DNA of 53,427 bases from Promethearchaeati archaeon. Its GTDB lineage: Archaea > Asgardarchaeota > Heimdallarchaeia > Heimdallarchaeales > Heimdallarchaeaceae. Of this stretch, positions 18,605-20,697 are shown in pieces. The stretch's first letter is position 1. Each line of letters opens with the position of its first letter. The notes under the pieces are model-generated. The model was not told where the DNA came from. It searched no databases and saw only the letters and a list, made by a program, of their open reading frames with translations. The DNA lies in the NCBI GenBank assembly GCA_013166775.1, contig JABLTJ010000024.1:1-53427 (forward strand), written 5' to 3'. Made by a program: the position numbers and the translations under genes.

Positions 18605-20584
18605 ATGAGAAGAAAGAAAATTGTCTGTGCAATTATAATAGTTGCATTATTTAGTACAAGTTTAATTCAAGCTCAATCGATAAATCAATCTGGTCCTTTC
18701 TTCACTCTCACTATACTAGTTACTTCAGGAAAAGCTTTTGATTATGGAGTGTATATTGTCAAGTATCTAAAGGACATAAATATTGATGCAAGAATTAAGG
18801 TTTGGAACTACGATTGTAATATTCCTAATTCCTACCCAAAAATCAATAAGGATTGGGATTTAGCTGTTTGTTCTTATAAAGGAGGAGGAAAATCTCCTGA
18901 TATGAGAGATTTATTTACTGAAAATGGATCTCAAAATATTTTCAATCTGAATTCAAAAATACCTTATCAGAATGAAAGTGAATATATGCAAAATAAAGCA
19001 GCATCAACTTTTGATCTTGATGAGAGACAGCAATTGTATTATGATTGGCAACAACTTGTAATGTCAAACATAGTACCAGTTTTACCACTATTTTCACCTA
19101 GATTATATACTTCTATATGGTCAAACACCGAAAGCTATGAGATGAGATGGGGATTAAGTGATAGTTCACCCTATATGAGTTTTAACGGTCTACATGAAGG
19201 GCAAGAGAATCTAAATGAATTTAATGTTGCATACAATGAGATAGAAAAACATGGTCCAAGCTCCATAGATAACCAATTTAATTTCTTGTTTTGGGAATTA
19301 ATCTCAGAACCGATAATTCAGTGGTCTCCCGATAATGCTCCACTAAAAACTGGTTTAATATTTGATTGGGAAGAGGTAGGTAATTCTCATCACAAATTCT
19401 ATATGCGAGATAATATTGTATGGAATCCGTCTTTTAATATCTCTGACAGAGATTCTACATCTGAACCCTTAGTTATAGAAACATCACCTGATGATTGGGA
19501 AGTCACCGATCCCGGTATCCTAATTTCAGGGCTAAAATCTGGACAAGTAAGCAATGGAATGAATCAGTTAGTAACGGCAAAAGATGCAGTTTTTACTCTT
19601 TTAGCAACTGCTCATCCATTAATATCTGAAAAAGCTGAAAACTATAAATGGTTAAAAGATTGTTATGTTGATCCTTCAGATCCATTTGCTTTCCATGTAT
19701 TTGTGGATGAAAATCCGGAAACTATATTAATTGAACCTATGGTTGATTTCTTTTCATATCTTGATTTAGGAATTTTACCTGAATTTTTCCTCAATTCTAC
19801 TGATGATACAGTTACATTAACCAGTGGAGGGATAGAATGTGTTGGATTGAATGAGACAATAAGGGATACAATGCAATGGAATAGTTATGAAATTAGTCCT
19901 TTTGGTTGTGGTAAGTTTATGCTGGACTATTTTAGTATTATACCTCAAACTGTTGTATCATGGAGCCCATTTTGGTTTGGAGTAGGTGCTATTGATGGAA
20001 CAACGGGTATGACACCATTTGTGGAAAAGGTTAACATTTATGATTATCCAGATGAAGAAGAAAGAATAGAGATTTTCAAAACTGGAAAATTGGATCTCAT
20101 TAGTGTTACTAGTTATCCACATGAAAGGAGAATTATGCAGCAGGATTATCGATTTGAGTTTCAAACAGAAATTCAGAACATTTTGAATTTGATAGCATTT
20201 AATTTAGAAAGTGAATCTATTGGTGGTTCTAGCAATTATGAGAGAATAATAGGAACAGATGGAGAGAATAGTACTGAAGCTTGTGCTGTTAGGAAAGCTA
20301 TCTGTTATGCAATAGACCGTGAAGAAATAAATCAGGTGTTTCATGATGGGGAATATACCTTGTGCCACAACCCAATGTATCTCTACACAGCTTACTATTA
20401 TTATGATGATGTTATCAAGTACTATCATGATCTTGATGCAGCTTGGGAGTGGATGGAAGCTGCAGGATACAAAGTAGATCTTACTAATATTTATCCATCA
20501 GTAATAATAGCTGTTTTTTGTTTAATTAGTATTTCAAAAATAGTTTACAAAAAGAAAATTAGAAAGGAAAAGAAGAAAAGCTAA
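18605..20584 (+). CDS. ABC transporter substrate-binding protein, family 5 (OppA/DppA-like), permuted, C-terminal membrane anchor
   Basis: VTAKDAVFT, PFGCGKFML, VRKAICYAIDREEI, AWEWMEAAGY, then TM helix and basic tail. Confidence 0.85.
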   Translation: MRRKKIVCAIIIVALFSTSLIQAQSINQSGPFFTLTILVTSGKAFDYGVYIVKYLKDINIDARIKVWNYDCNIPNSYPKINKDWDLAVCSYKGGGKSPDMRDLFTENGSQNIFNLNSKIPYQNESEYMQNKAASTFDLDERQQLYYDWQQLVMSNIVPVLPLFSPRLYTSIWSNTESYEMRWGLSDSSPYMSFNGLHEGQENLNEFNVAYNEIEKHGPSSIDNQFNFLFWELISEPIIQWSPDNAPLKTGLIFDWEEVGNSHHKFYMRDNIVWNPSFNISDRDSTSEPLVIETSPDDWEVTDPGILISGLKSGQVSNGMNQLVTAKDAVFTLLATAHPLISEKAENYKWLKDCYVDPSDPFAFHVFVDENPETILIEPMVDFFSYLDLGILPEFFLNSTDDTVTLTSGGIECVGLNETIRDTMQWNSYEISPFGCGKFMLDYFSIIPQTVVSWSPFWFGVGAIDGTTGMTPFVEKVNIYDYPDEEERIEIFKTGKLDLISVTSYPHERRIMQQDYRFEFQTEIQNILNLIAFNLESESIGGSSNYERIIGTDGENSTEACAVRKAICYAIDREEINQVFHDGEYTLCHNPMYLYTAYYYYDDVIKYYHDLDAAWEWMEAAGYKVDLTNIYPSVIIAVFCLISISKIVYKKKIRKEKKKS

Positions 20585-20697
20585 TAATTATATGGACCAG
20601 AAAGAAGAAGCTTCCTGGTTATAGCTTTATCTTTTTCCAATCTTATTTGTTTGAAAGTACTTAGTTTAGTATTCATTTTTTTGGTTTTAAACATCAT
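20581..20697 (-). CDS. Unannotated 38-aa micropeptide P1 (MMFKTKKMNTKLSTFKQIRLEKDKAITRKLLLSGPYNY)
   Basis: Hand translation; GAGGAG Shine-Dalgarno just upstream (about 20704-20709); follows 20728-20988; aligns ungapped with the family C-terminal motif. Confidence 0.72.
   Translation of the reverse strand: MMFKTKKMNTKLSTFKQIRLEKDKAITRKLLLSGPYNY

Follow-up and report, generated by a model that had tools for sequence, protein, structure and literature searches.

A basic 38-residue peptide gene of a Heimdallarchaeial genome belongs to a tail-helix family with candidate links to PH1932-like regulators

Introduction

SinI resembles the oligomerization domain of SinR, and the RRNPP regulators, such as those of the Rgg/SHP and PlcR/PapR systems, work with small peptide signals. 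Sra and L41e are small basic peptides that are associated with the ribosome. The Heimdallarchaeia are the Asgard class nearest to eukaryotes. To our knowledge, almost nothing is known on small proteins or transcription control in this class, and we know of no peptide-ligand transcription network described in archaea. In Bacillus subtilis, SinI and SlrA are anti-repressors of SinR (PMC4238804). The structure of PH1932 of Pyrococcus horikoshii has been solved (PDB 1ULY and 2CWE), and no operator, ligand or peptide partner of PH1932 was found described in the literature searched, in which the work of Itou (2008) is represented through PMC4486848.

Here, we analyze P1, a short gene behind A1 and opposite the regulator gene R1, in a window of 53,427 nucleotides from a Heimdallarchaeial genome of 3.85 Mb with 33% GC. 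The peptide shares its C-terminal helix with A1 and its paralogs, and the genes of this family are compared below with those of the PH1932-like regulators.

Results

Location and signals of P1

An earlier note on this DNA had proposed a 38-aa ORF downstream of A1 without naming its strand; the frame was found open on the minus strand (Table 1). The SD and the distance to A1 given in that note also held. The Shine-Dalgarno (SD) sequence GAGGAG is 6 nt 5' of the ATG of P1, the distance between the A1 stop and P1 is 30 nt, and P1 fills the gap to the convergent SBP gene, overlapping its stop by 4 nt. A comparably strong SD preceded 61 of the 12,796 ORFs of 30–45 aa in the host genome. The peptide had been called hidden, which is true for some gene callers that missed it and not for Logan, ENA and JGI, where P1 or its orthologs were called without a name.

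No separate promoter motif was found between A1 and P1. Because of this, and because a T-rich tract that is probably an archaeal terminator comes after P1, A1 and P1 are probably transcribed as a single unit. The start of A1 was assigned to the ATG at 20988, since the ATG at 21096 precedes the TATA box and is not conserved. The starts of the longest ORFs of A1 (20989–21096) and A2 (30150–30218) both traverse the genes' own promoters, and the entries of 122, 106, and 97 aa in databases are probably too long at the N-terminus. A coiled-coil protein with a weak match to PspA is encoded at 17663–18448, with one gene between it and P1; in many relatives its homolog converges directly on the second A gene.

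Table 1. Coordinates of P1, its paralogs, the linked regulator genes and the candidate control elements in the window (a dot marks elements without a strand)
Feature	Position	Strand	Remark
SBP_bac_5 gene (family-5 solute-binding protein)	18605..20584	plus	Converges on P1; mere neighbour
T-rich tract 3' of P1 stop	20549..20580	minus	Present in orthologs too; probable terminator
P1	20581..20697	minus	38-aa basic micropeptide, net charge +8, tail-only A/P member; ATG at 20697, TAG at 20581
P1 Shine-Dalgarno GAGGAG	20704..20709	minus	Retained across orthologous loci
A1	20728..20988	minus	86-aa three-helix protein: N-terminal hairpin and tail helix; start moved from 21096
Degenerate operator-like palindrome	21003..21022	minus	Downstream of A1 TATA box
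TATA box of A1-P1 unit	21044..21051	minus	Kept in orthologs
Motif 2 palindrome TTCTC-N7-GAGAA	21055..21071	.	17 bp, abuts TATA box
Second, weaker palindrome	21155..21174	.	Just 5' of R1 TATA-like box; arms kept in orthologs
R1	21217..21924	plus	Divergent PH1932-like ArsR-type winged-helix regulator, 232–235 aa
A3	29376..29639	minus	87 aa
Motif 1, double CACAAnTTGTG-type palindrome	29688..29711	minus	Before A3 TATA box
P2	29766..29864	minus	32-aa paralogous peptide, GGAGG SD, 33 nt after A2
A2	29898..30149	minus	83 aa, probable TTG start at 30149; ORF list starts at 30218
Motif 2 palindrome	30185..30201	.	Upstream of A2
Three more PH1932-like regulator genes	31871-32575, 32761-33465, 33611-34291	plus	Motif 2 before last two

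Orthologs of P1 and selection on its frame

Eight orthologous loci with DNA were obtained by following the homologs of A1 and R1. In keeping with the coding status advanced in the earlier note, the P1 frame behind A1 was unbroken in all eight, with zero frame-disrupting changes and with the SD, an ATG-ATG start and an L-L-L-S-G end. The pN was lower than the pS in all pairs, with pS of up to 0.5, and stops were present in the other five frames of the stretch. Between the window and locus L147, P1 differed by four synonymous and two nonsynonymous changes (Fisher p = 0.012). As judged from these alignments, P1 is a protein-coding gene under purifying selection, because neither its frame nor its SD or start is lost at any of the 8 loci, and the pN stays under the pS throughout. 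The variation was mostly in the first ten residues, and the basic N-terminus is the most variable portion of the peptide.

A copy of P1 with 36 of 38 identical residues turned up in a protein collection, and a ninth locus, a gene call without DNA, had a 37-aa gene at the position of P1. The 24 further GTDB genomes in this genus yielded no ortholog of P1, and in the closest of them the contig is broken at this locus. In two orthologous loci the SBP gene was swapped for another gene 3' of P1; thus, the P1 frame is no by-product of the overlap with SBP. A leader or attenuator peptide was also considered and rejected: wherever a gene was called 3' of P1 in the orthologous loci it was convergent, and a co-oriented gene downstream is therefore lacking.

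The tail-peptide family

The family to which P1 was assigned consists of basic peptides of 28–41 aa and A proteins of ~87 aa with a common C-terminal helix that ends in L-x-x-G. P1 carries the tail signature, which is E-[RK]-x-x-A together with L-x-x-G within five residues of the end. Its kinship with the A-protein tails, first claimed in the earlier note, was backed by HMMs built without P1. With a tail HMM from which all sequences of the host genome had been excluded, P1 ranked 8th of 50,544 ORFs (E = 0.0097), and the seven ahead of it were other family members; its top genus-wide matches were A tails and one stand-alone peptide. The common register of that note (E/S at A-4, K/R at A-3, and G at A+9) was likewise found in A1, A2, A3, P1, and P2. 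No long protein of the host genome scored against the tail HMM. Taken with its conservation, we consider it very probable that P1 is a real gene of the A/P tail family.

The search with the tail profile identified dozens of stand-alone ORFs of 28–41 aa with their own SD, and the host genome holds about ten family members. The net charge of 44 family peptides ranged from +5 to +11. For 12 ortholog pairs of other family peptides, the pooled pS was 0.34 vs. a pN of 0.09. The best-kept residues of the tail are hydrophobic residues and Gly, and the conserved positions make a hydrophobic stripe. The invariant Gly is followed by zero to four residues, which are S/T and then L/F in g1. When 83 genomes from the class and 201 from the phylum were surveyed, convincing tail matches were limited to g1, g10, and f7, where g1 and g10 denote genera and f7 a family that belongs to a second order of the class. 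Thus defined, the family was found in only three genera of two orders, where the PH1932-like regulators are expanded. Phylum-wide matches outside Heimdallarchaeia had E above 0.003, were mostly within long ORFs or contained stops, and were left uncounted. A search of 1.84 billion proteins gave 20 matches, nearly all of the size of A proteins or short peptides.

The family had no match above the curated cut-offs in Pfam, NCBIfam, and Rfam, and its sequences had no match in the PDB. The Atlas searches with A1 and P1 gave no usable match, the comparison of the A alignment with proteins of 30–41 aa gave zero matches, as did the metagenome scan with A1, and the fold search with the A1 model returned generic helical hairpins alone (Z at most 7.3). 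Two exact 23-mer matches (L187 and L188) lay outside any A1-P1 context and were set aside. A likeness to the N-terminal helix and first strand of G-alpha (window 20584–20652) had an E of 0.21 for the A profile and was treated as chance. No paper on the A/P family was found in the literature, and the family is undescribed.

The A proteins are ~87 aa throughout the genus and are often encoded as tandem pairs, divergent from a winged-helix gene of ~230–320 aa. They carry an acidic N-terminal part before the tail. Comparison of the orthologs showed that the tail is the best-kept portion of A1. The A1 model is all-helical with three helices, the last of which stops at the invariant Gly (pTM 0.42, packing uncertain). 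In the window, P2 occupies the interval between A2 and A3, where relatives show a gap of ~100 nt. A2 is split from the regulator cluster by the gene of a 334-aa acidic protein without Pfam match and a 69-aa ORF (window 30385–31710); in relatives the regulator and the A pair are immediate divergent neighbours. A 56-aa ORF (L079:2619-2789, G003) corresponds to the N-terminal hairpin of an A protein alone and is beside full-length and tail-only copies. From this ORF, the A/P family appears modular.

Several further loci contained small genes of this kind. Beside the homolog of window 45566–45991, the loci L060, L061, L064-L066, and L068 carry four or five small conserved genes in succession (62, 48–56, 86, 46–65, and 112–138 aa) that includes an A protein and an Arg-rich peptide; such small ORFs are absent from the ORF list beside 45566–45991 in the window. 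In L071 (G000 C102:19133-20665), a 318-aa peptidase-like gene lies between two peptide genes that are nearly identical and both have motif 1, and E2-like and JAB-like genes, recognized by eye, are divergent at 0.5 kb. At L258:2333-2416 there is a probably frameshifted copy of a peptide gene that is intact in L263, divergent from a regulator. Finally, the basic 34-aa peptides of L075 (G000 C66:4486-4590, after a PadR-like gene and a membrane protein gene) and L135:2041-2145 have a similar helix without the terminal Gly and are possibly a sister family.

Promoter motifs of the peptide genes

In an alignment of eight intergenic regions, the TATA box and the palindromes between A1 and R1 stood out as islands of conservation. 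Motif 2 is found in front of regulator genes in the host genome and also in a distant lineage without the peptides. Because it fronts regulator genes even where peptides are lacking, motif 2 is most likely the site of a PH1932-like regulator.

Motif 1 sits just 5' of the TATA box and fronts A3 and most of the stand-alone peptides. It was found in 40 of the 83 genomes of the class, mainly in f1 and f7, vs. one control match. It also fronts genes for MFS transporters, peptidases and a ~400-aa repeat protein, and it probably defines a second regulon in the families f1, f2, and f7. In addition to these genes and those of the tail peptides, small membrane proteins were among the members observed (examples are at window 29688–29711, G000 C78:40399, C102:19282 and 20692, and loci L195-L244). 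A second conserved peptide family, whose 40-aa members share this promoter and the SD and lie ~47 nt after motif 1, was found in L202, L203, L204, L211, L228, L230, and L233; these peptides have G-[QH]-x-[FV]-x-[YF]-like ends and no match to the tail profile.

Linkage of the peptides to PH1932-like regulators

R1 matched PH1932 by profile (E = 8.6e-11, profile residues 16–223) and by fold (E = 1.8e-8), and its model has a winged helix and PH1932-like C-terminal helices. The PH1932-like matches per genome were 10–12 in the host, 2–14 in other g1 genomes, 4 in g10 and 7–12 in f7. Two single-contig genomes of the same family without tails had one match each, and the genomes of other families had 0–4. 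Related genomes are not independent, and this co-distribution amounts to about two lineages.

Moreover, 11 of 22 regulator clusters of f7 contain a tail peptide, and often several consecutive ones, whose direction of transcription leads away from the regulator. These loci were chosen by regulator, not by peptide, and the clusters were counted by hand; two of the 11 had fed peptides into the profile, a third had close relatives there, and the rest were new. From 5 to 13 tail peptides per 3–4 Mb, the chance expectation per f7 regulator locus is about 1–2%. In the host genome, A1, the A gene of contig C53 and a weakly scoring peptide of contig C61 all stand in divergent orientation to a regulator. 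At G000 C47:43734-44138, a regulator copy is broken, its match being interrupted by four stops. The comparison of the tail with R1 revealed no homology (hhalign probability 0.1%). The predicted complex of an R1 dimer with P1 had a score of 0.00 with the fold of the partner uncertain and was counted neither for nor against binding.

Discussion

Overall, P1 is a real gene of an undescribed family, for which a plausible mechanism of action can be proposed. The explanation that we favor, tentatively and at a little short of an even chance for the mechanism as a whole, is that the tail helix binds PH1932-like regulators as a modulator of feedback or cross-talk, similar to SinI and SlrA. A1 and P1 would be made from one promoter that the divergent R1 may control via the palindromes that flank the TATA box. 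In P1, the functional portion would be the helix of ~24 residues that it has in common with the A proteins, and P1 would act in trans by docking this helix on a protein, of which the PH1932-like regulator family is the most likely candidate. Upon induction of the promoter, P1 and A1, once translated, could bind R1 or its paralogs and alter their DNA binding, as anti-repressors or in a co-repressor feedback, and the motif-1 members of the family might relay a further signal to these regulators, in the way that SlrA acts on SinR. The confinement of the tail genes to lineages with expanded regulators and their divergent position at half of the regulator loci of f7 argue for such a partner. Several observations count against it. 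Plain targets, such as GNAT-like, MFS, and oxidoreductase genes, are behind the same motif 2, and co-location and a common operator are equally expected for them. Many stand-alone peptides behind motif 1 have no regulator within about 1.5–2 kb. Motif-2 regulators are also found in lineages without tail genes, including one genome with four copies, and the tail, unlike SinI, has no homology to its regulator.

Some of these observations would fit a regulated stress effector, whose helix docks on a general cellular machine, e.g., basal transcription factors or RNA polymerase, a coiled-coil ATPase of protein turnover or an envelope protein, while the regulators merely switch P1 on. Two unrelated promoter motifs drive the tail genes together with genes for MFS transporters, peptidases, GNAT-like proteins and the ~400-aa repeat protein, many copies are far from any regulator, and a hydrophobic stripe of conserved positions is typical of a docking helix. 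We nevertheless consider this account unlikely, as it poorly explains the restriction of the tail to regulator-expanded lineages and the divergent clustering in f7, and a universal machine predicts a wider spread. The size and charge of the peptides would also suit a basic RNA- or ribosome-binding peptide, such as a hibernation factor of the Sra or L41e kind, or a small DNA-binding peptide. That P1 varies most in its basic N-terminus, that hydrophobic residues and Gly are kept best, that the same tail is found on A proteins with an acidic N-terminal part and that neither ribosomal nor other solved chains matched make such a role improbable.

Still less probable is a precursor of a peptide modifier, cut after the Gly and conjugated, or a tag for degradation or the proteasome gate with an HbYX/GQYL-type C-terminus. 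It would account for the invariant Gly close to the end and for the E2-like and JAB-like genes near two copies; however, the residues after the Gly are conserved in g1, unlike a discarded extension, the tail length varies, the penultimate residue of P1 is Asn and not aromatic, a beta-grasp fold is lacking, the Gly is at the end of the modelled helix as a helix cap would be, and no ligase gene accompanies the peptides. We see very little chance for a membrane-active cationic peptide, antimicrobial or toxin-like: the peptides are short, cationic and helical, but their hydrophobic moment is low (0.13–0.31), their mean hydrophobicity is mostly negative, and they have no signal peptide and no linked transporter or immunity gene. 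Equally remote, and largely refuted, is the possibility that P1 has no function, being either left over from the duplication of an A gene or an ORF that arose by chance. Although an AT-rich genome yields thousands of ORFs of this length, and orthologs were missing from the other GTDB genomes examined in the genus, the retention of frame, SD and start under substantial synonymous divergence, with all other frames closed, and the dozens of tail-only genes that occur independently, each with an SD and a promoter of its own, are against it.

If the favored binding to PH1932-like regulators were general, Heimdallarchaeia of two orders might run a peptide-coded network, in which helical intracellular peptides are specific ligands of paralogous PH1932-like regulators; we regard this extension as doubtful. 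Up to about a dozen different peptides per cell would then pair with as many regulators and give feedback and cross-talk between stress regulons. If true, it would represent a peptide-ligand transcription network and provide a ligand for the PH1932 fold. What the finding itself provides is a multi-copy peptide family that lacked annotation, together with two candidate operator motifs and one candidate partner. Should the helix bind the regulator, the PH1932 family, an orphan despite its solved structure, would gain a ligand, and protein anti- or co-repressors would exist at scale in archaea; if it does not, P1 still represents a new stress-linked peptide family that is often missed by gene callers.

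Similar to SinI and SlrA, the A/P proteins are tiny and are encoded beside or under a regulator, and, with paralogs driven by different promoters, several signals could converge on one repressor family. In contrast to SinI and SlrA, the tail is not homologous to R1, the regulator is a PH1932-like winged-helix protein, the host is an Asgard archaeon and the binding is putative. R1 is about 20% identical to PH1932, with an insertion, and such regulators occur in about ten copies per genome. Similar to the RRNPP systems, a regulator gene and a small peptide gene are divergent and probably share an operator; however, R1 possesses a winged helix and PH1932-like helices instead of a TPR domain, and P1 is basic and hydrophilic, contains neither a hydrophobic stretch nor an export signal, and has a tail that is also fused to a helical hairpin. 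P1 is like Sra and L41e in size and positive charge and differs from them in lacking any sequence match and in belonging to a family that is multi-copy, lineage-restricted and regulator-linked. Ubiquitin-like proteins and SAMPs have a beta-grasp fold and a C-terminal Gly-Gly, whereas the A1 model is all-helical with a single Gly. Compared with the HbYX proteasome activators, P1 has an Asn as its penultimate residue, and the family has no fixed C-terminus. Thus, by the features tested, P1 falls outside the SinI, RRNPP, ubiquitin-like, and HbYX families, and, by analogy to SinI and SlrA, it may act in an anti-repressor- or co-repressor-like manner.
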